Shown here: positions 3,468-19,439 of the stretch, piece by piece
Position numbering within the stretch: the first letter of the stretch is position 1
Layout: every line of letters begins with the position of its first letter
Virus record (IMG/VR): IMGVR_UViG_3300033074_001783
Span: 32,001 to 96,000 of that record
Direction: 5' to 3' (one strand)
Length of the DNA stretch: 64,000 nt
Origin: a virus
Taxonomy: Duplodnaviria > Caudoviricetes
Notes under the pieces: model-generated
What the model was told of the DNA's origin: nothing
Database searches by the model: none
Seen by the model: only the letters and a program-made list of their open reading frames with translations
Program-made: the position numbers and the translations under genes

Positions 3468-3476
3468 AACAAGTAA

Positions 3477-4265
3477 CTAGCCATTTACAAAATGGTCGTG
3501 GATCGCTTTCAACCAATCCGCAGATTGTGGATTTAGTTCAGCTTGAAGAAGATAACCAGATAGAACAGAAAGTAAAATACGAATTGCAGGATAAATGTTG
3601 GCAACCAAAACCATTTTATAAAACAAGCTTTCACACTTCGTTCGCGCGTTGTCCTTGTTGCCAAGATAATCTTGATCCCCAAGAAAAGTTTTGCTTGATT
3701 GGAATCCATGATCCCACAAAGTCTTGTAGATTGACAAAGAAACCACGTCAGTTGGAATCCATGAAACAGCTTTGTTGTTTACAGTTTTCAAAACAGAACA
3801 AGCTAAATTTATTGCATGTTCTAGTTGCACTGCTTTAAAATTGATTGCGATTGGTTTGAATAGTTCAAGTTTTTTATCTAGGTTTTGGGCGGCTCCAAGA
3901 GAAAAACTTGCAACAGTTGGAAACGTTAAAGACTCTTGCTGAAAAGCAACTGCTGTTTGTTTTCTGGCAAACTCTTGGTACTCGGTTAGAGCAGCTTTGG
4001 ACAAAGACACGAGATTGAAAGAGTCCAAATAGGATTGATCAAAAGATATTTTTTCTTTTGTTTTTGTTTCAACCGTTTGTTTTATTTCTTGAACCAACTC
4101 CAGTCTCACGCCAAGTCGGTCATAAAGATTGTTTACTTTGTTAGCAATCAATCTAGCATAGGTTGAAGATTGAAGTTCCGTGGGAGGTGCTTCCCCATAA
4201 TTCAAAACGCTGTAGATATCTTCTTGCAAAGTTTTGTGTACAAGTTTTTCAATGAGTTTTTGCAT
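3477..4265 (-). CDS. Hypothetical protein with LxE leader (candidate internal head protein)
   Basis: Likely start ATG 4265, just after the upstream stop; N-terminus MQKLIEKLVHKTLQE-D. Confidence 0.6.
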   Translation of the reverse strand: MQKLIEKLVHKTLQEDIYSVLNYGEAPPTELQSSTYARLIANKVNNLYDRLGVRLELVQEIKQTVETKTKEKISFDQSYLDSFNLVSLSKAALTEYQEFARKQTAVAFQQESLTFPTVASFSLGAAQNLDKKLELFKPIAINFKAVQLEHAINLACSVLKTVNNKAVSWIPTDVVSLSIYKTLWDHGFQSSKTFLGDQDYLGNKDNARTKCESLFYKMVLVANIYPAIRILLSVLSGYLLQAELNPQSADWLKAIHDHFVNG

Positions 4266-4997: not shown

Positions 4998-5675
4998 TCA
5001 GTCGTCGTAACTGAATCTATTGCCTTTACCAGATTCATCAGGTACAAAATGAACCGGCTTTTCTCCCAAGGCTGGTGAAGCCATATCATCTCCAAGCCGC
5101 TCTCTCATTTGCCTTACATCGCCAGTTGGCATGTGTTTGGAATTTTCTGGGAGTCCTCTTTGCTGTTCAAAGTCAATTTCAACACCCGTCTCTTTAGTGC
5201 CATCGTCTTTTGTTGGATTGTAAACTTTGGCTGGATCAAACTCTCCAACGCGGGCAAGTTTACCAATTAGTTTGTAAGCGCTTTCGTACTCCTCTAGCCC
5301 AAAAATATTGTTCATGTTCAAATAAGACACGACTTCAAACACCGCGTCCCCATAGGTAAAGTAATCTCCTTCATTCAGATTCAAACCTTTATCCAATAAA
5401 TCACGAGCTTGGACCAATATTTCTACTTTTGCAGTTGCCTCTCTTCCAAAAATGTTTTGTTTTGTTTCCCAATTTGGCTGTCCTGCCATAACGCTCAAAG
5501 CCACAGGGTTTTCAAACATTTTGTTAACAGCTTCGCCGTACACAGGATCAACCTTGGTGTGTTTGACAGAAATGGCATAATAAAAAATCCTTTGACCTAT
5601 CACGTCTTTTACCAACTCCTTCACCGTGTCGTTGATAAACTGTATTTCCTTTGTGCCTACGAATAATCTTCCCAT
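4998..5675 (-). CDS. Neck / head-closure protein (T4 gp14-like)
   Basis: IGQRIFYY...DPVYGE...F...GD motifs; located between gp13-like and gp15-like genes. Confidence 0.65.
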   Translation of the reverse strand: MGRLFVGTKEIQFINDTVKELVKDVIGQRIFYYAISVKHTKVDPVYGEAVNKMFENPVALSVMAGQPNWETKQNIFGREATAKVEILVQARDLLDKGLNLNEGDYFTYGDAVFEVVSYLNMNNIFGLEEYESAYKLIGKLARVGEFDPAKVYNPTKDDGTKETGVEIDFEQQRGLPENSKHMPTGDVRQMRERLGDDMASPALGEKPVHFVPDESGKGNRFSYDD

Positions 5676-6382
5676 TACAACACCTGTAGGATGGCTTGTG
5701 TCATAGTTTCAACATTTCCATCATTTATTTCATTAGAGGCGCACCATATTACTCTTCTTAGTTTAATTGTCCCAACTGAGATGATCTCTTTCTCTGATTC
5801 AGCGTAGTGCCTTAGTTCTGGTATTTCAGCAATGCCAGCAGGATTCAAAATGAATTTACCTTGGTTGTCTCCTGTTGCAGCAACAAGTAGACAGGCAAAT
5901 TTGCCTTGGTCTACATCCAAAAAACCGCCAGAGTTAAGTGCTTTGGCAAGGTTGACAAGCTTTTCTTTGTCTCCCCACAAAGTCCAAGAGGCATGGGGTC
6001 TTCCTTTGGGGGTAAAAGTGCCAGATTGGGATTGTTCTACATGTTCAAGCGAGAACATACTTTGTCCAGTTATTGTTGACATAACATTTTCATCAACACC
6101 AAACAAAAATCTATACGCGTAAGCATTTGGTGATTTTAAGATGTCTTGGTATTCCCCGCGATTAGCCAAAGCAGCCAAGGATGGGGCATTCATGCCCAAA
6201 GCATCCATATCCCCTATGTGATGTTGTTTTACAACATTGTAAAGGTTTTTTTCAGGTGCGGTATCAACTTCTGGTTTCTTTGGATCTGGTTTTCCTCTTT
6301 CTTGACCAAACAGCACTTGCCCATATGGTCCTTCTTGAAGAACCCCCATAACCATGTTTTCAATCAGTAAATTCAACTTCAT
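5675..6382 (-). CDS. R-S-E clade ADP-ribosyltransferase-like protein with LxE leader
   Basis: AYR (Arg), ASWT (Ser motif) and ESEKEII (ExE) occur in canonical order; leader MKLNLLIENMVMGVLQE-G. Confidence 0.55.
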   Translation of the reverse strand: MKLNLLIENMVMGVLQEGPYGQVLFGQERGKPDPKKPEVDTAPEKNLYNVVKQHHIGDMDALGMNAPSLAALANRGEYQDILKSPNAYAYRFLFGVDENVMSTITGQSMFSLEHVEQSQSGTFTPKGRPHASWTLWGDKEKLVNLAKALNSGGFLDVDQGKFACLLVAATGDNQGKFILNPAGIAEIPELRHYAESEKEIISVGTIKLRRVIWCASNEINDGNVETMTQAILQVL

Positions 6383-6431: not shown

Positions 6432-7322
6432 TCAGTTGTGATCAAGCATTTTGGTCCAACCTTTATATGACCATCTTTGACCTTCAATAACTTGCTGCAA
6501 CTTCCAAGCATCCAAGGCTTGTTCTTCTGAAAATGCTCTCAGGTTGTAAATATTGCGATACAATATACCTGCGGGAGATAACAGGTTCGCTTTTAAAAAC
6601 ATCTTTGATTTTGAAGTTGTTTTGCCGGTGTAATCCAACACTTGTTGGACGCTTGGAATTCTGGCTTCCAGTTTTCGTCTGCGAGTTGTTGCGGTTTTAC
6701 GGTGTGCCAATGGATCAGTACCACCAGTGAGCGTCTGTTTGATTTTTGCTCGCTCTTCTTCGGACATGGAAGCCCAACGACGTTTCCTACATTCTGACAT
6801 TGCCTGTTGGTGTTCTGGTGTTGCCCAAAGAGCCAGGAATTTTTCGCTGGCACGTTTTCGTGCCTCTTCTGTGCCTTGGGCGTCTTTTTGTGCCATAGAA
6901 CGTTTGTTTTTTTGAATTGGATCTGCCCAACTATCTTTGGCAGCTTTGGAACATTTTTGTTGGGTTTCTTCTGGTGTTGAAGAACGATAACCTTCTCTGC
7001 TGATAGCTTCTTTGCGCAAGTTATAACACCGCTGTTGGTTGTCATAATGTTGATCCAAGTAAAGCTGTTCTCGTGCCAAACGTTCTTCTTTGGTTCCTTC
7101 TGTAACTTCCAATATCTCAAACACAAACGCATCTGTTCCACATTTGTTGAAATCATTCAACAAGAAACGATTGCTGTGTTTGTTCATTTCCAATGATTTT
7201 GAATGTTGTTTCCAGCGAGTTTTAAATTCTTTGCAAGATCCAACGTAAATCCTGCCGTTGGTTGTATTGGTGAGTTTGTAGACGCCTGATTTGAGAGAGC
7301 TTCCATCGTAATTGAATTGCAT
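6432..7322 (-). mobile_element. Free-standing GIY-YIG homing endonuclease (Seg-like)
   Basis: SGVYKLTNTTNGRIYVGS...RW..H...F.FEILE...REQ.YLD...YN; basic helical DNA-binding region and C-terminal YKGW; likely start ATG 7322. Confidence 0.88.
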
Positions 7323-7356
7323 GAAAAGAAGTATGTTATGAGAGGGGACGTTTGTC

Positions 7357-8628
7357 TTATCGCATTGATATGGCAATTTGAGGTGGCATTGGCACGTACG
7401 AAAGTTGCTTTACCATCTGTTCCGCTCGGCTGGCTTCTTGTTCTGCAAGTTTGTCATAAGTCAAACTTTCAAGTTTTTCTTTCAAACCTGTCATTAGTTT
7501 TTCTTTGTCTTCACGGGCTTGGCTTACGAGATCATCTCCGTTTAGTTGTATTTCTTTATCGCCAGCAGGAATACCTTTGAATTTACCTCTGATGTTGCCG
7601 AGTAATTCTTTGGATAGAGCCAAGGTATATTGCGCAATCCAATTCCTTGCCCAAGGATTTAATGATTTATAGTCAAGTGTTCCAAATGGTATGTTGGCAG
7701 GATTGGAAGCTCCATAAATTGAATCATCTGTAAAAGAAGATCCATGACCAGAAGCGGAACCCATTGTTCCACTTGCAACAAGAGTGTCTGCTAAAGATGG
7801 CAGAGCTTGTTGTTTGTAACCAACTCTTATCCAAAGTTTATCATTTACTCCTGAAATAATACTTGTTGGAATCGGAAAAACCCGAATGTTTCTACCTGAA
7901 ATTTTGTAGCTGTAATGAGACCTTCTAACTTTTTGGCTCATTTTCAGTTCGCCACCCCTTAAAATGTCTTCAAACACTGGCAACACCTGCAAATGAACCC
8001 CTGCGCCCGCCGCAGCAGAAGCACCCAAACCAACCAATTCTGAGTTTTGCATACCGGCCGTTACCTTACCAGAGAACAGGTAGTTGATGGGTGCAATCTG
8101 AAATACTTCGTAAATTTGCAGTTTCCCTTTTGAGCCCAAGGGTTGTAGATCATACAAAGCGTTACCGCTTCCATCTTTAAGGTCTGTGTAAAGGTTGTAA
8201 TCTTGTTGACCTTGCACCAAGGAAATAGAACCAGAATATGAGTCTTGCACCCCACCAAGACCAATGAATCCAGCATATGCTTCACTCATTCTGTCAAGGA
8301 ATTCAAGATTTTGACGAACGTACATGTTCGTCAAGTTCATGTTGGACGGGTTTAGAGGATTGGTAGTATCAATTGAACCAGTAGTAATTCCAAGCAAAGA
8401 AGCAAGATTGGATTTGGCTTGATATTCAATGATCTGCCCTTGAAACTCTCTTGTAGATGATTCAAAAAAGTTCCAGATGATCTTCTTGGTCAGTTCTACT
8501 CCAAGGATATCTTCTCCCAAAGAACGAAGAACGAATGTAACCATTCTGTCGGCATCAAACTGGAAGATTGGGTCACTGTCCCAAAAACCCCAAGATGTAG
8601 GTCTCAGCGTTTCATTAAAATTTGCCAT
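7357..8628 (-). CDS. Neck / head-tail adaptor protein (T4 gp13-like)
   Basis: LG..ILGVEL at the N-terminus and WIAQYTLALSKELLGNIRGKF...LNGDDL at the C-terminus; true start ATG 8628 (MANFNE), 5 nt after CTAGTTA. Confidence 0.8.
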   Translation of the reverse strand: MANFNETLRPTSWGFWDSDPIFQFDADRMVTFVLRSLGEDILGVELTKKIIWNFFESSTREFQGQIIEYQAKSNLASLLGITTGSIDTTNPLNPSNMNLTNMYVRQNLEFLDRMSEAYAGFIGLGGVQDSYSGSISLVQGQQDYNLYTDLKDGSGNALYDLQPLGSKGKLQIYEVFQIAPINYLFSGKVTAGMQNSELVGLGASAAAGAGVHLQVLPVFEDILRGGELKMSQKVRRSHYSYKISGRNIRVFPIPTSIISGVNDKLWIRVGYKQQALPSLADTLVASGTMGSASGHGSSFTDDSIYGASNPANIPFGTLDYKSLNPWARNWIAQYTLALSKELLGNIRGKFKGIPAGDKEIQLNGDDLVSQAREDKEKLMTGLKEKLESLTYDKLAEQEASRAEQMVKQLSYVPMPPQIAISMR

Positions 8629-8746
8629 GTCCGTAACTAGACCTCTGGCAGATAACCTTACGACACGTAGGAGAATGTGCAGATTGTTGAATTGTTTGAG
8701 AAGAAGAGATTGATTAAGAACTGCGCAAATGAATCTGAAGATTCTC

Positions 8747-9478
8747 TCAGAAAGAGCATAAATCCAACACTTTAACATCCACCCAACAGGTTTCTGGATG
8801 ATCAGCCGTGTCAACCTTGATGATGTCGTTTGGTTGAGAAGGATCAAGCACAACTTGAAACCTGTCACAAAGCACACCGACAACTCCTCCTGTTTGTTCA
8901 ATGAACGGCTCACCCTTGACAAACACAGGACGATACTGCCTTGTGTGTTCAAGAATTGTTCTTGTGTCATAGTTCACAGTGATCCTGTTTTCACTGAATC
9001 TCATGGTCCGTTTGTGAATGAGGTTACCCGCGTTGAAGATAACTTCCACCAACGTTTCATACCAATCTTGAACAGTTCCTTCAAATGAAAGTCCTGTTTT
9101 CTCAAAACCAGTTTCTACGTCAACAAACTTGCCGGGTGCTCTTGACCAGAAACGTGTGCCAAGGAAACCTTCGGGCTCTTGAACAGGAGTTGCTTCATCG
9201 GAGTAATCAAACCCTTTGATCTCACATGACTGCCAAGGTATGTTTTTGTATTCTTCATATCTAGCTTGTAGTTCTTTGTCCAAACGAATATCATCTTTGT
9301 TGTTGTTTGGTACATCAGGGCACGATTGCAAAGGTTGTTCTTTGCACTCAACTCGTTTGAAGTTCTCGTCATACGCAAACAGTCGGTCAGGTTCTTTGCT
9401 CCAAACTGGCGTTGGATAGAAACTGATGGTTTCGGATTTTCGCCAAGGCCCTTCAATTATTGTCATGCCACACAGCAT
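8747..9478 (-). CDS. Protein carrying a diverged copy of the C-terminal (A-domain) segment of the major capsid protein
   Basis: FWSRAPGKFV, QDWYETLVEVI, IHKRTMR, TILEHT..YR and DP..P align collinearly with the MCP at 11070-13013; start at 9478 or 9466. Confidence 0.8.
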   Translation of the reverse strand: MLCGMTIIEGPWRKSETISFYPTPVWSKEPDRLFAYDENFKRVECKEQPLQSCPDVPNNNKDDIRLDKELQARYEEYKNIPWQSCEIKGFDYSDEATPVQEPEGFLGTRFWSRAPGKFVDVETGFEKTGLSFEGTVQDWYETLVEVIFNAGNLIHKRTMRFSENRITVNYDTRTILEHTRQYRPVFVKGEPFIEQTGGVVGVLCDRFQVVLDPSQPNDIIKVDTADHPETCWVDVKVLDLCSF

Positions 9479-9484
9479 AGTACA

Positions 9485-10285
9485 TCACCCGTTGTATTGA
9501 CTGACATATTTTGGTGGCACTTTCCCATAAATGATGACCGTGTTCGGATCTATACCCTCTTCAACATCAAAGTGCATGTCTTCTATTCCAAGAGTGTGAG
9601 CCAAAGACATTTTCATGTCATATTCCACAACATCTGGTTCTTGACTGACCCTTGGCATGTAACCATCTGTTTTCATGGCATTGGTATCAATCACAACAAT
9701 TCCGCCACTTCCACCATAGTTGTAGCTTTGAGCCACACTTTCTTCTGTTGTTGCAAACACTGCTGCACCAACACCTGTATTTGTCATGCCTCTTGTGTCA
9801 TTTTTCGGAAGAATTCCGACAGACAATACGCCTTGTAGGTCATTTGTTCCGTGTAACAAATTCACAGGTCTTTCCCAAAACTCTTTATTAAATTGCTCGT
9901 CTGGATCACTCAAAGTATATTCAGACTCATGTCCATACGAAATAACTTTGTCCAACCATTTAGCCGCTCCAATTCGTTCATAACCATCTTCACCTGATGG
10001 AACATAAAGGAAATGATTGATTTTTCTATAGTCATCTCCTTCCCAACTGGAGTAGATTGTCTCCTCTGGAAAATCAATTCTTTTGAAGTGAATATTTGGA
10101 TTTTTTGAATGTTCTAGTTGGCTTAGTTTTACAAGAGCTTCATAGGATGGTATTTCATCATAGTTGGCTACAAACCAATCATTCATGATGCCTTTGTAGG
10201 CTTGTTCCATTGGAATAACCATCACATCTTCTGGCAACTCAACGGCTTCAAACAGAAGATTTGTCAATAACGAACGTTTGGTCAT
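9485..10285 (-). CDS. H-clade ADP-ribosyltransferase-fold protein with LxE leader
   Basis: LLHGT...GILP...VFATT...AQSY...IVVID...VPPKYV resembles ART/Tpt1-like NAD-binding folds; leader MTKRSLLTNLLFE-A. Confidence 0.6.
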   Translation of the reverse strand: MTKRSLLTNLLFEAVELPEDVMVIPMEQAYKGIMNDWFVANYDEIPSYEALVKLSQLEHSKNPNIHFKRIDFPEETIYSSWEGDDYRKINHFLYVPSGEDGYERIGAAKWLDKVISYGHESEYTLSDPDEQFNKEFWERPVNLLHGTNDLQGVLSVGILPKNDTRGMTNTGVGAAVFATTEESVAQSYNYGGSGGIVVIDTNAMKTDGYMPRVSQEPDVVEYDMKMSLAHTLGIEDMHFDVEEGIDPNTVIIYGKVPPKYVSQYNG

Positions 10286-10293
10286 GATGAATG

Positions 10294-10956
10294 TTAACTA
10301 GCAAGTTTCCACCCACCACAAGATGTTTTGGTTTTGCCAGATACCATGAGGTGCATTGCTTTATAGTTGAATCCTCTCTCCATGCACCATTTACGAAGAC
10401 TGGATGACAGGACAACCTTTTCACCTGTTAAGTTGTTAATGAGGTTATAGGTGGGAAACTTTGTGTTGTTCCACCGTTTGTTGGCGTCTTCTGCTGCTTG
10501 TTCGCGGAGAGCAGGATCTTGCCACGCTTGTTTGTTTGCTTGACCAATTGCTGCTTTGTGTTGCTCGTCATGTGGTTGGCAGCGTTTGTCGGTGAGAGGA
10601 TTGCAAGGTTCATTTTGTTTCTTGCCTTTACGTGTATCGCAAACGTCTGGTCGTAAATTGTAACAGCGTGTTTGTTTATCGTACCAAAGGTTCAGATAAA
10701 ACTGTTCTCGTAAGAGTCTCTGTTTTGAATCTTGCACAACCTCAAGAATTTCAATGATGAAATCTTCCGGTTTACATTTATTGAAATCGTTTTGCAGAAA
10801 TGTGTTTGCATGTCGTTGTTTCAACAGCGAATCAAGATGTTGAGGAAATCGTTTCTTAAAACGGTAGGTTGAACCAATGTAAAACCTACCGTTGGTTGTG
10901 TTGGTAAGTTTGTAGACGCCACCCTCGTTGCCAAACGAAGCATAAATGAATTTCAT
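10294..10956 (-). mobile_element. Free-standing GIY-YIG homing endonuclease
   Basis: GGVYKLTNTTNGRFYIGS...REQFYL...CYNL; paralog of 6432-7322; lies just downstream of the MCP terminator. Confidence 0.88.
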
Positions 10957-10962
10957 GTCTTC

Positions 10963-10991
10963 ATCTTACAGCGCCAAGACCCCAATGTGAA
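10963..10991 (-). promoter_or_regulatory. Sigma70-like promoter for the GIY-YIG gene
   Basis: TTCACA-N17-TAAGAT, ending 6 nt before the ATG. Confidence 0.45.
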
Positions 10992-11012
10992 GACCGAATG
11001 AGGCAGAAAATG

Positions 11013-11047
11013 AAGAAGGGAGAGGACTTTCGTCTCTCTCCCTTCTT
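11013..11047 (-). terminator. Intrinsic terminator downstream of the major capsid gene
   Basis: AAGAAGGGAGAG-AGAC-GAAA-GTC-CTCTCCCTTCTT stem-loop followed by a T-rich tract. Confidence 0.75.
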
Positions 11048-11069: not shown

Positions 11070-13013
11070 CTATATGATGCCCATGTCAAGGATGGTGATT
11101 GTTGCGTAGAAGTCCGCACGAACCATCTTCTTGCCGTAGCGAGTCATCACACCCTTGCGAGGTGTAAAGTCCTCTTGGGCATAGATGACAGGGGTGAGGA
11201 TCAGAGGCACGTAAGGTGCGTAGATGTAACCTGTCTCAAGGAAGGTGTTACCCTTCAAACCGATGAGGATTTTGTTGGTTGGGAAGTAAGGATCCTTGTA
11301 AACCACATAGCGGTTGTTAAGAGTTCCTGTTGCTTCTGCACCGACTGTCATTCCTTCTTTTGTCTGACCATCAGCGTCAATCTTGTAATTGGCTCTGTAG
11401 GCTGTTGTGTGTTCAAGAATTGTACACACGTCAGGAGATGTGATCAGGAAGTTACCTGCTCCGCGCAATGTCTTCTTGTGGATGACGTTTGCAGCGTCGC
11501 TGATGGTCTCCAAAAGTGTCTGATACCACTGTTGAATGTCACCTGTGAATGCAGGGCCGGGTGAGAGTGTTCCCTGACGAGTTCCCTCTGTACCTGTCCA
11601 CTTGTTCACGAAACGACCGGGAGCTCTTGACCAGAAGTAGTTCGCAGCAGCCGCTTGGGTAAGCAAGTCGCTAAGAATCTCGCGGTCAATGTCCAAAGTA
11701 ACCATTTCGCTAAGGATGTTTGTCAGTTCTGCCTCAATGTCAATTGAGTAGAAGGCTGTCAAATCCTGTGCCATTTCAGGCGACCAGCGTGCTCTCAACT
11801 TGCGTGAAGTTGCTGTTACGGCCACTGATTCAATCTTGATGTCCACTTCAGGAATCTTGGGACTTGAGTCCAAAGCGAAGTCAGTTTCAAATGAAGGAAT
11901 CATCAGTGTGCTTCCGTCGTTGTTGACTGACAACGCATCTGAAATCACAGTTGAAGCTGTGAGAGCATGAGTTGTCGCATCACCAAGTGTAGGAGCGTTT
12001 CCTGTGTTGCTCAAGGCAACCAAGAACTGAACGTGTGATCCACCAAGAGCATCGGGTGTAAACAAACCTGTGATTGGGTTAAACGAACCACGCTTTGTCT
12101 TGGTACGGAGGTTCATCACCCCTGTGCCACCTTGATAGTTTGTACCCCAAGTTGTTGCACCACCGGGAGTTCCACCAAGACCAGTAATGGCGATTGCGTG
12201 GAGTGTCTCAAGGTCTGCACCAGCGATTTTGCTTGTGAGCTCTGAAGCTGACATGTGCACGAAGCAGAAGTCCAACACGTTGTTCGCAAGATCGTTTTCA
12301 ATTTGTGAATCAAAATCAGCGAAGCGTGCGTTATAGCCAACGAAATCTGCTGTGCTTTGCACTGTGGCGGTTGTTCCGGTTGTCCACACTGAACCTGATG
12401 ACCAGAAACCAACTGAGTCGGTTGGGGCAATCAAGTTAAGGGCTTGCTTGTGTACCTTTGTGAAGGTTGAACCACCAAGACCGTAGTGCCCACCTGTTGC
12501 CAATGAGCTTGAACGAATGTTCGCGCCTGTTGGAAGGTTGTACACTGACTGGCCACGAGTATATGTCTCATTGGCAGAACTTGTTGAAAGTGAAAGACCA
12601 GCGTCTCCACCAACGTTTGAACCATAAGTGTAGTCCAGATAGAAGAGCAGACCCGCAGGCAAGCTCATAGGCTGTACTGAAACCACTTCGTTCGCAATAA
12701 GGCCCGCGAAGACCTTACGCACGATTGGGAATGCGACGTTTGTGAAACCGGCAATTTGACCAGAAGAAGCCAGACCGGCTCCACCTGTTGAAATGCCGTT
12801 TGCCTCTTGAAGAACTTCACGAGCGCTTGGCCCGCGAAGAAGTTCTACCGCTTGGTTTTCAAGCAGTTTTGCCATCTTGTCTCGGTTGATTCCTGAAAGT
12901 CCTTGCAAAAGACCTGTTTCGGCCCACTTAGCCGTCATGCGGGCTGTGTCATGACCGAGCCCGCGTCGGCTCACGCCTTCCGCAAGTTGGTTTAGTGTGA
13001 ATTGTCTCGCCAT
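11070..13013 (-). CDS. Major capsid protein (T4 gp23-like)
   Basis: LLENQ, PIVRKVF...VSVQPMSLPAGLLFYLD, RKLRARWSPEMAQDL..., YAPYVPL, FTPRKGVMTRYG; AGGGAG RBS. Confidence 0.96.
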   Translation of the reverse strand: MARQFTLNQLAEGVSRRGLGHDTARMTAKWAETGLLQGLSGINRDKMAKLLENQAVELLRGPSAREVLQEANGISTGGAGLASSGQIAGFTNVAFPIVRKVFAGLIANEVVSVQPMSLPAGLLFYLDYTYGSNVGGDAGLSLSTSSANETYTRGQSVYNLPTGANIRSSSLATGGHYGLGGSTFTKVHKQALNLIAPTDSVGFWSSGSVWTTGTTATVQSTADFVGYNARFADFDSQIENDLANNVLDFCFVHMSASELTSKIAGADLETLHAIAITGLGGTPGGATTWGTNYQGGTGVMNLRTKTKRGSFNPITGLFTPDALGGSHVQFLVALSNTGNAPTLGDATTHALTASTVISDALSVNNDGSTLMIPSFETDFALDSSPKIPEVDIKIESVAVTATSRKLRARWSPEMAQDLTAFYSIDIEAELTNILSEMVTLDIDREILSDLLTQAAAANYFWSRAPGRFVNKWTGTEGTRQGTLSPGPAFTGDIQQWYQTLLETISDAANVIHKKTLRGAGNFLITSPDVCTILEHTTAYRANYKIDADGQTKEGMTVGAEATGTLNNRYVVYKDPYFPTNKILIGLKGNTFLETGYIYAPYVPLILTPVIYAQEDFTPRKGVMTRYGKKMVRADFYATITILDMGII

Positions 13014-13049
13014 TTTAGTTGTGCTCCCTATATTTCTTCTTGTTTCTAA

Positions 13050-15134
13050 CTAGACTTTGCTAGCGCTAATTCCTGCCAAACGCATCCAACGTTCTCTTGT
13101 TGGAGCGTATTCTTTATTTTCTGTTACGTTTGTGCTCTCATTCAAAGGAGCGCTTCCTGATTTCACTGTTGTAGAAGATGAACCAGAGGTTGTGACCTTC
13201 TTTGGTGAACGGTGCTCGTCAAGAACTTTCTTTACACGAGAATAAACTTCTTTCGCTTCCGCGAATGTTGAAGCCTCATCCATGTAACCAGTGATTTTCT
13301 TTTTCTGGTTTACAGACAAAGACTCAAGAGCAAGTAGTTTGTTCAAGTACAATGACTTGGCTGCAAGCAGTTTCATCTCTTGCAATTCTCTTTTTGTGTT
13401 GCGAAGTTGAACAGATTCCTTCACAACTGGTTTGCGTGATTCTGCAACAGGAGGTGAAATCTCTTCTTCCTCTTCATCATCGGCCAAAGGAGAACCATCG
13501 TCGTTGGTGATTTCATATTCCTCGTCACCATCTGGTTCACTGTGAGCTCCACCAAAATCATCGCCCTCTTCGTCAGAAGGTAAAGATGAAGCCATCGCGG
13601 GTTCAACAGGGTTGCTAACGCTTACGCCGCCGTTGCTGTCAACCTTGATGGTAACAGTAACACCACCATCACTACCTGCACCAAGCTCTTCTGCTTGCAT
13701 ACCGCACTCTTTGAGAGCTTTTGCGGCTTCTTTCAATGCCTTCAGTTTTGCAGCAAACTTTTTCTTTGCTTCCATTACAGCAACCGCGTTGGTGTTTACG
13801 GGTTTGCCGGGTGTCACTTTGTCCATGCCATCTGTCACTTTGTCGCCAAGGATTTCAGCGGCTTCGCCCATTGCTGGCTCTGACTCTTCGCTGTCCCCAA
13901 ACATTTCGCGAAGTTCTGCTTCAAGTTGCATGGCTTCTATGTCTTCTTCAAGATACCCAGAAGCGCCACCAACTTTAAGTGAATCTTCTTTGCCGGGATC
14001 TTTAATGTTTGATTCAGATGCTTTCATCGCGTGTTTGCCAGCGGCATTCTCGGTGTCAAGCTCTGCATCACCTTTTGGTTTCTCGGTACTATCACCGAAA
14101 CCAGCGCTACCTTTTGTTGGAGGTGCATTTTCAAAAAGACCTCTTGCAAATTTTCTCAAGTTTTCGCTACTCATTTTGTTCGTGTCCTTGTTCTTCGGAT
14201 ACGGATAACTATTGGTGTTTTCCGTAGATTCCTGAAGTTGTCTGTATAAACCTTCAAGACGATTTTCTTGAAGGCGTCCAAGTCGTTGAGGCACAAGTTT
14301 ATTTTCAACAAGTTTTTCCAATTTCCCCAACAAACCAAAGAGGTGTTGTTCCATTGCAAATTTTTGCATTTTTGTTGGTTTGGAGTTCAACAAAATATGA
14401 CTCTGTGTTCGTTTGACGGATTCCTTGAAATCTTCGTATGTAATTGCCTCTGTTTGTGTGTCTTCTTCCCCAAAAGGAGGCATGGAAGCATCTGTGTCTT
14501 CCCCTGTGGCCACAACGGGTGCAGGGGTTTCAGATGGGAATCCTCCAATTGGAGTTGTTGGTTCAGTTGGTTCTCCAACCCCCACGCCACCCGTCAAGAC
14601 AGGTTCTTGCCCTGTTGCACTCATTTGTGTCCAAAGGTCATCAAGAGAAACTACAATTTGTCCCGAAGCGTCTGGCAATGGAACGCTGCCAAGGCTTGCT
14701 GATGGAACACTGATTGGAGCTCCGGGGCCTTCAATGGAGGGGGCGCCAATGTTGGCAGGCATACCAGCCTCGGGCGCAACTGGACCGGGAGCAGGAGGCA
14801 CCGCTGGTGGTGGAGCGGGAGGCATTGCTTCTGGTGTGGGCACCGCGGAAGGGGTAGGAGCAGGCGCAGGAGGAGGAACAGCGGGTGGAGAACCCGGAGG
14901 TGCAGCAGCAGGAGGAGGAGCCGAGGCATCTCCTGTCACGTCCGCAAAAGGATCTTCTTCCTCCTGCAAATCATTCATCCCTTCTGTGAGATTGCTAAGG
15001 CTTTGGTTCAATTCTTTTTCAATCAAAGGTGTTATGGCTTCAATGATTGCATTTTTCGCTTGATGAAACGCTGCTTCCTTGTAGCGACCAACTTCTACAA
15101 GTGCTTCATCGTAAAGAGGACTGGAGTTATTCAT
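13050..15134 (-). CDS. Prohead core scaffolding protein (T4 gp22-like)
   Basis: Directly upstream of MCP; acidic, Pro-rich and coiled-coil; many LxE/VxE sites; C-terminal RWMRLAGI. Confidence 0.75.
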   Translation of the reverse strand: MNNSSPLYDEALVEVGRYKEAAFHQAKNAIIEAITPLIEKELNQSLSNLTEGMNDLQEEEDPFADVTGDASAPPPAAAPPGSPPAVPPPAPAPTPSAVPTPEAMPPAPPPAVPPAPGPVAPEAGMPANIGAPSIEGPGAPISVPSASLGSVPLPDASGQIVVSLDDLWTQMSATGQEPVLTGGVGVGEPTEPTTPIGGFPSETPAPVVATGEDTDASMPPFGEEDTQTEAITYEDFKESVKRTQSHILLNSKPTKMQKFAMEQHLFGLLGKLEKLVENKLVPQRLGRLQENRLEGLYRQLQESTENTNSYPYPKNKDTNKMSSENLRKFARGLFENAPPTKGSAGFGDSTEKPKGDAELDTENAAGKHAMKASESNIKDPGKEDSLKVGGASGYLEEDIEAMQLEAELREMFGDSEESEPAMGEAAEILGDKVTDGMDKVTPGKPVNTNAVAVMEAKKKFAAKLKALKEAAKALKECGMQAEELGAGSDGGVTVTIKVDSNGGVSVSNPVEPAMASSLPSDEEGDDFGGAHSEPDGDEEYEITNDDGSPLADDEEEEEISPPVAESRKPVVKESVQLRNTKRELQEMKLLAAKSLYLNKLLALESLSVNQKKKITGYMDEASTFAEAKEVYSRVKKVLDEHRSPKKVTTSGSSSTTVKSGSAPLNESTNVTENKEYAPTRERWMRLAGISASKV

Positions 15135-15672: not shown

Positions 15673-16008
15673 TCAACCGGGAAACACGGGCATGACACGA
15701 GGTTGAGTGTTGAAAGCCAAGGCTGCCCAACGATTGCCAATGGCGGGCTTCATTTGCTGTTGTTGAATGGGCATTTGCATTTGCTGCATCATGGACATTT
15801 GTGGGTCTGGTTCAGAATTCATCAACGTTTCTGCCAGAACGTTTTCCATCAGTTGATTGCCACCAGCCAACGATTGAATCCTATTTTGTGCCATAGGATT
15901 TATCATCATTTGTTGCTGTGGCATTTGTGAGTTTAAAGCACCTTCAGTGATTAACTCTTTCAAACATTCTTTAATGACACTTTTCAATTCAGAGCGAGTG
16001 ATTTTCAT
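15673..16008 (-). CDS. Small prohead core-like protein with LxE leader
   Basis: MKITRSELKSVIKECLKELITE-G followed by Q/M-rich low complexity; overlaps the protease stop. Confidence 0.6.
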   Translation of the reverse strand: MKITRSELKSVIKECLKELITEGALNSQMPQQQMMINPMAQNRIQSLAGGNQLMENVLAETLMNSEPDPQMSMMQQMQMPIQQQQMKPAIGNRWAALAFNTQPRVMPVFPG

Positions 16009-16625
16009 TTTAGTTTTGCACCACTTCCAAGTATTTCATTCAAAACACGATCTACTCTATCTGATTTTTTGAAGATTTGTTTCAAAATTGTTGGATCAAT
16101 TTGTTTTGCTTCTGACAAGCGCATGAATGCTCCGTGTGTTGAAGGTTCAGATACAAAATCCCAACAAATTATCTGCAAGTCATCTTGGACAACATCTGTT
16201 CCATTTTTCTTTTGGACAGAACCAAGAGCTCTTGATGAAATACCCGGAACACCACCTGTTTTCAAAATAGTTTGGATGATGCCACCCGATGTTGGAGCAG
16301 GCATCACCAACACTTTTCCATAAATGTCTGCCCCCTTGGCCCAAATGTCCAAAATACGGTGAGAAGCATTTTTTACGTTAACAATTGGAGTATCGCTGTG
16401 GTCAACCTCTCCAAAAGCTCTGTTTTCTCTGATGAGTTTTTTGTAGTTTTCTATTTCACGCATCAAAATTTCATAAGGATACACACGACCATTTTGGTTT
16501 TCTGCATCTGCTCTCTGAAGAATGCCTTTCACAATCATTGCACCATCTTCACGAGTTTCCATCGTGTCATGGTCATATTCAAATGCCCTGTACTCTTTCA
16601 ACAGATATACTGGTTTTTCGTTCAT
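16005..16625 (-). CDS. Prohead core protease (T4 gp21-like)
   Basis: NQNGRVYP, GEVDH, GISSRALGS, DFVSEPSTHGA. Confidence 0.93.
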   Translation of the reverse strand: MNEKPVYLLKEYRAFEYDHDTMETREDGAMIVKGILQRADAENQNGRVYPYEILMREIENYKKLIRENRAFGEVDHSDTPIVNVKNASHRILDIWAKGADIYGKVLVMPAPTSGGIIQTILKTGGVPGISSRALGSVQKKNGTDVVQDDLQIICWDFVSEPSTHGAFMRLSEAKQIDPTILKQIFKKSDRVDRVLNEILGSGAKLK

Positions 16626-17440: not shown

Positions 17441-19417
17441 TTAAATAGTGCCTTGGTGCATTGCATCTTTCAACAAGTCCAAAAGCACCAACTCATCATC
17501 TGGTTCTTCATTTTCATGTAAGATTTCAATGTCCAACATCATTTTGTTGTTCTTTTGTGATTTTTCAAATCTCTGCAACTTTGAAATTAAATTACGACCA
17601 AGACTCTCTGGTATTCCAGACTTCTTAACTCTGCCATCGCGATAAGATTCACGCTTCAAAAATCCATCTTCTTCCAAGTTCATATCCAACATTTTTCTAA
17701 AATCAACGAGGTTGAATGTTGAACCATCACGTTTTTTATTTGTGTTTCGTGAAGGAGACATGTTGGGATTGATTGGAACCTTGGAACCAATTGATGAATT
17801 TGCAGATTTAATCTGTTCTGATTCCTCAGAAGGCAAAGGAGACGGCCTTGGAGCAATCTGCGGATTGTTTGTGGCGGGTGGCTGTTGATTGCTGCTGCTG
17901 TTTGGTGTTTTGTTTTTTGTGTTTGGTATTTGATAATTGGACGCATCAAACACGTCCACCAAAGAACTGGACGTATCTTCTCCATTTTCATTCTTTGGGG
18001 GCTCCAATGCCTCAAGTGTTTTCTTTCTTAAAGCATCTTTCTCGCGACCAAGACGTATCTTGTTGATTGTGTCCATTCTGAATCCAAGAATTTCTTTTTG
18101 AATCCACTCTTCATCAACCAACTCAGAATCTTTGGCTTTGGAAGCGTTTTCAAAACGAAGCGTCCAGATGTTAAGCTTTTGTTGCAACGCAATGGTGCTT
18201 GGATTGGAAAGCTTCAATTCAAAATCTTGAAGATCTTCTCCATCAAAGCCTTTTGCATACAAATGCAAAACTGCAAGTTGATTTAACTCTGCAATGATGA
18301 TCTTCTGAAGGTTAGTGATGGTTCTTGAAAAACGAATATCTTCTTGAGATAAAGTTGCTTTGGAAGACAAACCATCTTCATAACCAAGATACGCTCTCGG
18401 AACTTTTAGTGCCGCCGTGAGTTTCTTTTGAATATATTCAACATCTTCTATCGCACTTACGTGTTGACCACCAGCAAGCGAATCAATTTTGGTCGCGCTG
18501 TTTGGTCTTGTTGGAAGGAAGTAATCCTCAAGAACATCAATTGGGTTGTGTCTTTCATCGGATCTTCCTGTTAAACGATCTATTGAAGTGTTTGTTCTAA
18601 TCGCTTGCTTGGCCTGTTCCATGTAGTTTGGAACATCGTTTGGGTGAATACCAGAAACGTCAATATAAAAAACCCTTCTTTCAGGAGATCTTACAAGGCG
18701 ATAAACCAACATGGCGTCTTCCAACATGACCAGTTGACGCCAGATTTTCCTTGACGATTCAAGAAAAGATGTACCATACGGAATGAAAATGTCGTTGCTT
18801 ACGACTCTGAAATGCAGCACTTGCCAATTTTCAAGATATTTGCCCGCACCACCTGTTGTGAGTTTGAACCTGACAGCATAAGGATCTTCTGGATCATATC
18901 CCTCTTGTCTTTCAATGTCGGTTATCTTGATCGTCTCAACAAGTGAAACGCCCACATCGGGCATTACCTCTACGTGCAAAAACGTGTCTCCATACTTAAC
19001 CAAGTTACGAATCCATCTCCGCAACTCAAAGTCAACATTGCAAACATCATAAAACAACTCTTCAAGAGCACGTTGAATGTCTGTGTTGTCTGAAAACACA
19101 TGAAAACAACGACCGTTTTCATCTCCCGAACATGATTCATCTGCAAACAGATCTAGGGCAGTTGATATTGCCCCTTCATATTCCATCTCTGCGTATTCTC
19201 TGTATCTTACTTCTCGGTCAATTGCAGCATATGCACCAAGCATATTGAAAGGCGTGCCACCCTTACCTCCATAAAAACTTTGACCTGTTTGATGAATGCT
19301 TTGAGCATTCGTTAACTCTTGATTCAGGTTTTGGTTTTTAATTTTTCTTCTTAAAGCAGGACCAGAACGAAAAATTCTGTTTAATCGCTGATAAAAATTC
19401 TCATTTGCTGTGTTCAT
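17441..19417 (-). CDS. Portal protein (T4 gp20-like)
   Basis: LEDAMLVYRLVRSPERRVFYIDV, EDYFLP, KKLTAALKVPRAYL, EDIRFSR. Confidence 0.95.
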   Translation of the reverse strand: MNTANENFYQRLNRIFRSGPALRRKIKNQNLNQELTNAQSIHQTGQSFYGGKGGTPFNMLGAYAAIDREVRYREYAEMEYEGAISTALDLFADESCSGDENGRCFHVFSDNTDIQRALEELFYDVCNVDFELRRWIRNLVKYGDTFLHVEVMPDVGVSLVETIKITDIERQEGYDPEDPYAVRFKLTTGGAGKYLENWQVLHFRVVSNDIFIPYGTSFLESSRKIWRQLVMLEDAMLVYRLVRSPERRVFYIDVSGIHPNDVPNYMEQAKQAIRTNTSIDRLTGRSDERHNPIDVLEDYFLPTRPNSATKIDSLAGGQHVSAIEDVEYIQKKLTAALKVPRAYLGYEDGLSSKATLSQEDIRFSRTITNLQKIIIAELNQLAVLHLYAKGFDGEDLQDFELKLSNPSTIALQQKLNIWTLRFENASKAKDSELVDEEWIQKEILGFRMDTINKIRLGREKDALRKKTLEALEPPKNENGEDTSSSLVDVFDASNYQIPNTKNKTPNSSSNQQPPATNNPQIAPRPSPLPSEESEQIKSANSSIGSKVPINPNMSPSRNTNKKRDGSTFNLVDFRKMLDMNLEEDGFLKRESYRDGRVKKSGIPESLGRNLISKLQRFEKSQKNNKMMLDIEILHENEEPDDELVLLDLLKDAMHQGTI

Positions 19418-19439
19418 GCGGGTTTAACTAGCCCGCATG
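19415..19439 (-). promoter_or_regulatory. Hairpin enclosing the portal ATG, with the putative late-promoter motif in its loop
   Basis: CATGCGGG-CTAGTTAAA-CCCGCATG, a perfect 8-bp stem. Confidence 0.65.

Follow-up and report, generated by a model that had tools for sequence, protein, structure and literature searches.

HK97-fold capsid proteins are normally all-or-nothing building blocks. In the stretch of viral DNA analyzed here (64,000 nucleotides, referred to as the window), an ORF of 243 codons plus a stop at 8747..9478 on the minus strand was described in an initial annotation as a stand-alone partial duplicate of the major capsid protein (MCP). This raises the question of what one part of a capsid protein does beside the intact gene. 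We call the ORF the mini-gp23 gene (mini-gene), and its product and homologues minis.

The window belongs to a 118,963-bp IMG/VR virus record with a CheckV completeness of 32%; the virus is thus expected to be a jumbo phage with a genome near 350 kb. On the minus strand, the region from ~19.4 kb to 7.3 kb holds a T4-type head and neck module. It includes genes for the portal (17441-19417, Portal_T4), the prohead protease (16005-16625, Peptidase_S77), a large proline/acidic-rich protein (13050-15134), which is assigned to the scaffold by position only, and a gp23-type MCP of 647 aa (11070-13013; Pfam Gp23 E 4.7e-76; PHROG 138), the parent fold of the mini. Just past the MCP stop, a terminator-like hairpin with a T-rich run is present on the same strand (11018..11040). 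A GIY-YIG endonuclease gene (10294-10956, Pfam GIY-YIG), ORF266 (9485-10285) and the mini-gene follow, the last starting 6 nt past the ORF266 stop. The downstream neighbor of the mini-gene is a gp13-type neck gene (7357-8628; PF26809 on the ortholog in the relative L001, and a weak PHROG head-tail adaptor match), which marks a conserved gp23 ... mini ... gp13 interval. A second GIY-YIG endonuclease gene lies at 6432-7376 (Pfam GIY-YIG). Neither ORF266 nor ORF235 (5675-6382) matches Pfam or PHROG. The nearest cultured MCPs, those of Microcystis phage Mel-JY01 and Flavobacterium phage immuto, are just 34-43% identical to the window MCP, and no close cultured representative of this MCP clade was found in the phage collection searched.

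No enrichment of the T4 late promoter TATAAATA was detected. The heptamer CTAGTTA occurs five times in the window, in every case on the coding (minus) strand and 5-35 nt ahead of a gene start: 3474-3480 (ORF395), 8634-8640 (gp13), 10295-10301 (ORF266), 13047-13053 (MCP) and 19425-19431 (portal). The count is not significant (expected 3.1), and it is the placement that suggests a late-gene control motif. The mini-gene has no CTAGTTA of its own ahead of it.

In the BLASTP analysis, mini residues 110-222 aligned with residues 460-584 of the phage's own MCP (11262..11636, minus strand) with 51 of 125 positions identical (41%, E 4e-23). This confirms the claim of a collinear copy of the MCP segment at about 11260-11640 in the C-terminal half of the ORF, and every motif pair cited in support of it was found. 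The frame is open through all 243 codons, as had been stated. The A-domain core occupies aa 105-243 (8750..9166, minus strand), as delimited by the AlphaFold model and VIA superposition, and contains the WSRAPGKFV strand, the WYETLVE helix, the TILEHT helix, the GVLCDRFQV hairpin and a terminal VKVLDL strand. In the multiple alignment, the final strand of the mini (VDVKVLDL) is the counterpart of the last strand of the MCP (ITILDM) at its extreme C-terminus, and between the A-domain and this strand the mini skips only the P-domain hairpin of ~50 residues (YLETGY ... RKGVMTRYGKK). The N-terminal extension (aa 1-104; 9167..9478, minus strand) has a low-confidence model with one predicted helix (63-78). 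The N-terminal 105 aa are acidic (21 D+E against 13 K+R, pI 4.5) and showed no significant similarity to the MCP, in agreement with the earlier description. With Pfam Gp23 (PF07068), the window mini scored 18.4 bits, under the cut-off of 24.4, over profile positions 213-305 of 376, and the cut-off was passed by its relatives P0006 (32.7 bits) and P0085 (41.5 bits). Thus, by sequence the mini is a homologue of gp23-type MCPs, yet it does not have the complete HK97-type fold.

An AlphaFold2 model of the window mini was made from an alignment of 40 sequences. The pLDDT was above 90 at residues ~100-240 and below 50 across most of residues 1-60. In VIA superpositions, the model aligned with T4 gp23 residues 313-521 at Z 11.9 (rmsd 2.3 A, 113 residues), with gp24 (1YUE) at Z 9.3 and with HK97 gp5 residues 233-383 at Z 7.9. 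Foldseek against the PDB gave nothing at E <= 0.001, and its top-ranked entries were HK97-fold capsids, matched weakly. The ESM Atlas returned nothing usable for the mini (pLDDT 0.27 for ESM's own model). The label of an isolated A-domain-like segment was therefore correct, because the confidently modeled core superposes on the A-domain of T4 gp23. Missing from the mini are the N-arm, E-loop, insertion domain, spine-helix region and P-domain hairpin. The annotation had stated that the rest of the capsid fold is missing; this is right for the N-arm, E-loop, insertion domain and P-domain hairpin, but it overlooked that the C-terminal strand is retained. By the model, the mini is a capsid A-domain including the returning C-terminal strand, with the P-domain hairpin excised. 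Since the capsomer-joining N-arm, E-loop, insertion domain and P-domain are missing, the mini cannot form a shell. The annotation had reached the same view, and it agrees with the model and superpositions, which cover the A-domain alone.

Homologues were collected by a word-indexed search that started from the ORF and was continued with a profile of five members. The search returned many MCP fragments, which share 55-66% identity with the window MCP and extend in the alignment to its last residue. It also returned distinct short proteins that align to MCP ~450-590 alone, at 30-50% identity, and end in a V-x-V-L-D-hydrophobic strand (P0001, P0002, P0004-P0013, P0030, P0049, P0056, P0085, P0094 and P0105). 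There are at least 20 mini homologues. In the careful tree they form five well-supported subfamilies: (a) the window mini and L001; (b) L003 and P0013, with an internal insert; (c) L002, L008, L009, P0008, P0030 and P0056, with a C-terminal insert and no N-terminal extension; (d) P0004, P0007, P0009-P0012 and P0094, with a conserved N-terminal region of ~100 aa; and (e) P0085, a protein of 432 aa with a tandem pair of A-domains, one degenerate at ~10-160 (YWSARLG ... VIKVLDF) and one well conserved at 287-432. In a different MCP subclade, a minimal mini of ~120 aa lies 2 kb downstream of gp23 (L060:10605-10994) and retains YWSRVPGKFVNK, WYEGLV and a terminal VEILDL.

The N-terminal region of subfamily (d) was found in only seven of 1.84 billion 50%-identity clusters, all of them (d)-type minis. 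The model of one member (P0007) had a pLDDT of 84.5, and an exhaustive structural search with it led to T4 gp23 at Z 10.6; its long N-terminal helix and extra strands add few residues to the structural alignments. A degenerate spine helix was considered for these ~100 aa but has no support from sequence, as hhalign against MCPs aligned the A-domain core only. In minis of subfamily (c) (e.g., P0105 at L009:10001-10747), the core is followed by a segment resembling MCP 362-399 (a strand of the P-K-I-P-E-V-D-I type), seen as a second BLAST HSP at 39% identity. Since MCP 362-399 lies upstream of the A-domain, the order in these proteins appears to be permuted.

The minis branch from the unresolved base of a clade of MCPs of 620-680 aa, on stems that exceed the MCP branches several-fold in length; their rate of evolution is several times that of the MCPs. 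A quick tree grouped all minis (SH-aLRT 83). In the careful tree, in which the base is unresolved, one mini clade appeared in 6% of bootstraps, and an AU test did not reject grouping of the window mini with its own MCP subclade. The number of mini origins may therefore be anywhere from one to four. Descent from gp24 was considered and rejected, since the minis have no significant match to Straboviridae gp23/gp24 and branch within their own MCP clade; this includes the BLAST comparison of the mini with gp23 and gp24 of Ac42. Separately, tandem full-length MCP genes were observed at L046:4451-8543 (625 and 654 aa) and L042:3-3518. Their A-domain cores are almost identical, and they are possibly a gp23/gp24-like pair kept alike by gene conversion, or a very recent duplication.

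Across the minis and MCP fragments, W111, S112, R113, P115, G116, G124, G134, W139, Y140, T142 and G201 are invariant, and F118, V119, K121, V136, E141, L143, E145, D149, N152, I175, P184, N205, V235 and D239 are nearly so. The WYET helix core is present in all 19 minis that could be scored for it, and MCPs accept Q or S at the E. Conservation of the WSRxPG strand and of the WYET helix is no less strict in the minis than in the MCPs, and outside these motifs the mini sequences evolve fast. At residues ~491-505, in the helix that is conserved best, the window MCP reads WYQTLLE, against the clade consensus WYETLVE found in 52 of 74 MCP-labelled rows. The window mini carries the consensus WYETLVE, and the MCPs of L002, L008 and L009 read WYETLME. 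In the encapsulin literature, the major subunit contacts within the capsomer are ascribed to the two main A-domain helices (PMC8346489). We infer that it may be a protein-contact surface, and not the fold alone, that the minis conserve.

The closest relative, L001 (84% identical), is a 5-kb assembly contig with the same gene order and carries a mini-gene as well. Between the two mini-genes, dN/dS was 0.17 at a dS of 0.23, and the two indels, of 22 codons (in the N-terminal extension) and 3 codons, are both in frame. For the same pair of genomes, dN/dS was 0.04 for gp13, 0.22 for the second endonuclease and 0.07 for ORF235. The initial annotation had named neutral decay, or absence in close relatives, as the finding that would speak against a function. 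The retained gene, the dN/dS and the in-frame indels favor a function instead. The mini-gene is intact and under selection.

The GIY-YIG endonuclease gene and ORF266 form a homing cassette (9479..11010, minus strand), which is 100% identical at the nucleotide level to L001:1-1532. This identical tract spans at least 1.53 kb (11010 to 9479); a mismatch first occurs at 9458, within the mini-gene, and beyond it the identity is 86-98%. The genes flanking the cassette differ between the two phages at a dS of 0.23-0.35. Such a tract is the mark of recent homing or co-conversion, which would have ended at the first codons of the mini-gene. Judged by sequence comparison, the cassette has recently parted gp23 from the mini-gene in the window, and the deduced ancestral order is gp23, terminator hairpin, mini-gene. 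This order is seen in L002, L008 and L009 (the last from a 315-kb contig), where the portal ... protease ... scaffold genes and gp23 are followed by a GC-rich hairpin with a T-run, the mini-gene ~45 nt later and then gp13. Once the homing cassette is discounted, the window matches this gp23-terminator-mini-gp13 order. In L063, which has the closest relative of the window MCP, a GIY-YIG gene comes right after gp23.

A second context was found for subfamily (d). In L004 (a 102-kb contig), L006 (also on a 345-kb contig) and L007, the mini-gene lies inside nucleotide-sugar clusters with genes for epimerases/dehydratases, a DegT aminotransferase, an acetyltransferase and nucleotidyltransferases; the short P0004 contig shows no more than an RmlD-like gene upstream. 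A UDP-glucose/GDP-mannose dehydrogenase gene is located downstream of the mini-gene, immediately in L004 and L007 and after a 68-aa ORF in L006. The gene immediately upstream is Glyco_trans_1_2-like in L007 (26.6 bits, cut-off 25) and matches this family below the threshold in L006 (17.6 bits). In all three loci an NAD-salvage pair (NAMPT and NMNAT/Nudix) is downstream of the mini-gene. Genes for a dual-specificity phosphatase, Pth2, a tRNA-binding protein and an HD-domain protein were also observed beside these sugar clusters. In the 119-kb record of the window phage, neither a second mini nor a UDPG dehydrogenase was found. Close to the end of that record, outside the window, there is an NAD-dependent epimerase gene (G000:C1:112139-112828; E 1.9e-59), which may mark the border of a sugar cluster in this phage as well.

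The distribution of the mini is sporadic. For this MCP clade, 52 IMG/VR loci extend at least 2.5 kb beyond the MCP; only one of them (L060) has a mini downstream, and there is none next to gp23 in L063. Tblastn of the mini against 50,697 deposited phage records found no mini-gene and gave a single match, inside the MCP of LR756508; megablast of the region gave no match, and the literature searched held no description of phage A-domain-only MCP paralogues. The minis are thus a rare, previously undescribed phage family. As the gene is so sporadic, the capsid does not need it, and the vertex or other essential structural role that had been considered is unlikely.

On these grounds, our preferred reading, which we hold tentatively and at somewhat less than an even chance, is that the mini is a low-copy accessory protein that docks on gp23 or on itself through capsomer-type A-domain contacts and presents a variable appendage. 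The gene would have been copied from a gp23-type MCP of a jumbo-phage lineage, giving a functional stand-alone HK97 A-domain. Because the WSRxPG and WYET motifs are kept so strictly, it may act through A-domain capsomer contacts, and it would then dock onto gp23 subunits, capsomers or other mini copies. The ancestral site behind the gp23 terminator leads us to expect late, low-level production, as would fit a low-copy, capsid-associated adaptor. The variable appendage, here the acidic and probably disordered N-terminal tail of 105 aa, would be the part presented or delivered. The sugar-cluster position of subfamily (d), twice directly behind a glycosyltransferase-like gene, hints that these members might couple the capsid to the glycosylation machinery. 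Binding partner, timing, copy number and glycan link are all putative. Against this reading, the conserved motifs could serve folding alone, the gene is dispensable for the capsid, no glycosylation gene adjoins the window mini, and the fast evolution of the minis suits an arms-race role, as decoy or poison, at least as well. Moreover, the sugar clusters of jumbo phages have been interpreted as serving modification of the host surface, not the capsid (PMC7824862), so the link between minis and glycosylation is guilt by association only.

The enzyme neighbors in subfamily (d) can also be explained without the capsid. As has been suggested for Family 4 encapsulins, the A-domain may assemble with itself, into rings or larger bodies, and bind and stabilize a neighboring enzyme, which in this subfamily would be a glycosyltransferase or UDP-sugar dehydrogenase. 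The architecture is as in PF0899/2PK8, a Family 4 encapsulin; Family 4 genes lie behind enzymes, and one such protein forms a complex with GAPDH (PMC8346489). The (d) minis come directly after a glycosyltransferase-like or methyltransferase gene and ahead of UDPG dehydrogenase. However, the minis of the window and of subfamily (c) lie among head and neck genes without a conserved enzyme partner, and ORF266, next to the window mini, is a recent insertion. The minis do not belong to PF08967 by sequence, and self-assembly of Family 4 is itself a hypothesis. We consider this explanation unlikely.

The same loci bear on a role as a decoy, in which the free A-domain soaks up a capsid-sensing immunity sensor of the host without triggering it. 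Pairs of the NAMPT and NMNAT/Nudix type are known counter-defence modules, and subfamily (d) adjoins such a pair. The sporadic distribution, the long branches and the site in a variable region are typical of counter-defence genes, and the minis retain the clade-consensus motifs. The dose is the difficulty: a mini made from behind a terminator would be present at a lower dose than the MCP trigger expressed with it, a stoichiometry unfavorable for a decoy. The Gol trigger peptide sensed by Lit lies within the N-terminal part of T4 gp23. The ORF does not contain this region, so Lit-type sensing, which the annotation had offered as an example, does not fit. A decoy has, in our estimate, a low probability.

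The helix motif also allows a dominant-negative effect, although we find it decidedly doubtful. The mini would occupy the A-domain interface of gp23 like a cap and delay assembly of the phage's own capsid or poison that of co-infecting relatives. The motif at this interface is strictly conserved, and the combination of WYETLVE in the mini, WYQTLLE in its own MCP and WYETLME in the MCPs of L002, L008 and L009 is the pattern to be expected of a self-resistant poison. However, the divergence of the MCP helix is common to the whole subclade, including L063, which has no mini. Such a protein would also risk self-poisoning, and no experimental precedent was found in the literature searched.

Packaging into the head appears highly unlikely. 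Here the A-domain or a short N-terminal IxE leader would direct the mini into the scaffolding core, and the protein would be packaged and might even be injected. LxE-type leaders stand at the start of many of the phage's proteins, and VVE or FIE occurs near the N-terminus in subfamily (d). The annotation had reported no LxE leader for the mini; an I-I-E is in fact present at residues 7-9, and the statement holds to the extent that this motif is a weak match to the leaders of the phage's likely head-packaged proteins. The mini does not have the longer leader pattern of the phage's GNAT-like array and ART-like ORFs and is a poor fit to the leader consensus, and the minis of subfamilies (b) and (c) have no leader at all. 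Finally, a relic of endonuclease-driven recombination that is open by chance, as the flanking GIY-YIG homing endonucleases and the fresh co-conversion tract stopping at the first codons of the mini-gene could suggest, is hardly credible given the dN/dS of 0.17, the in-frame indels, the clean domain boundaries, the confidently predicted fold and the homologues at 30-45% identity that share motifs in two conserved contexts.

A wider proposal, which we regard as rather unlikely, is that the minis are free A-domain "capsid mimics" of one jumbo T4-like clade that act on the capsomer interface or on capsid-recognizing partners, and that they also show, in virus genomes, the truncation step behind the cellular A-domain encapsulins. 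Candidate targets would be head-decorating glycosyltransferases, host sensors and the capsid proteins of rival phages. If the association with glycosyltransferases is functional, the sugar clusters of jumbo phages would be linked to the capsid. The phage minis are a tractable model of what a free A-domain can do, including capsomer binding, ring formation, enzyme recruitment and capsid mimicry.

The minis can be compared with three known systems. Hoc and Soc of T4-like phages are dispensable, sporadic, encoded near head genes and made late. The mini resembles these accessory head proteins in its sporadic occurrence and its location near head genes; unlike the mini, the Ig-like Hoc and the small Soc have unrelated folds and are not derived from an MCP. 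T4 gp24 (PF07068; PDB 1YUE) is, like the mini, a gp23 paralogue, and its gene is located just downstream of gene 23. In T4, the GIY-YIG endonuclease gene segD lies between genes 23 and 24, and in L063, too, such a gene separates the two. However, gp24 has the whole fold and forms the pentameric vertices, whereas the mini retains about a fifth of the MCP, with the A-domain only.

To our knowledge, A-domain-only proteins have been described only as the Family 4 encapsulins of thermophiles, a group enigmatic in both function and origin. The ORF had been treated as a lone oddity with T4 gp24 as its nearest analogue; this view has to be revised, because the family has at least 20 members and, among described proteins, the Family 4 A-domain encapsulins come closest (PMC8346489). 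These proteins (PF08967/DUF1884) are of ~100 aa and correspond to the HK97 A-domain alone. They are confined to Thermococcales-type archaea and two Bacteroidetes genera, and their genes come right after enzyme genes; for one member a stable complex with the partner enzyme, GAPDH, is described, and the function of Family 4 is still speculative (PMC8346489). The type structure is that of PF0899 (PDB 2PK8), an archaeal protein of 94 residues (Andreas & Giessen 2021, PMC8346489), and the P0007 model aligned with it at Z 8.1 (rmsd 2.7 A, 85 of 94 residues). Six mini-family members gave no match to PF08967 by hmmscan at E up to 10, and a PDB profile search returned neither 2PK8 nor any capsid chain.

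As in Family 4, the mini is a stand-alone HK97 A-domain that has lost all shell-linking elements; the L060 mini is similar in size, and the (d)-type mini-gene stands directly behind a glycosyltransferase-like gene in L006 and L007. In contrast, the ancestral layout in the window is gp23-terminator-mini and not enzyme-mini, and most minis bear extras (the N-terminal ~100 aa, internal or C-terminal inserts, or a tandem second A-domain). Furthermore, the minis are phage-encoded beside a full-length MCP, whereas Family 4 genes belong to thermophilic archaea or Rhodothermus-type bacteria, and the minis have an independent origin from gp23-type MCPs. The same truncation is now seen in phage genomes next to the intact parent gene, selected, diversified and in two conserved contexts, and it offers a plausible viral route to A-domain encapsulins. 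The minis are an independent, virus-borne instance of the Family 4-type truncation, and the likeness is one of architecture, not of sequence.
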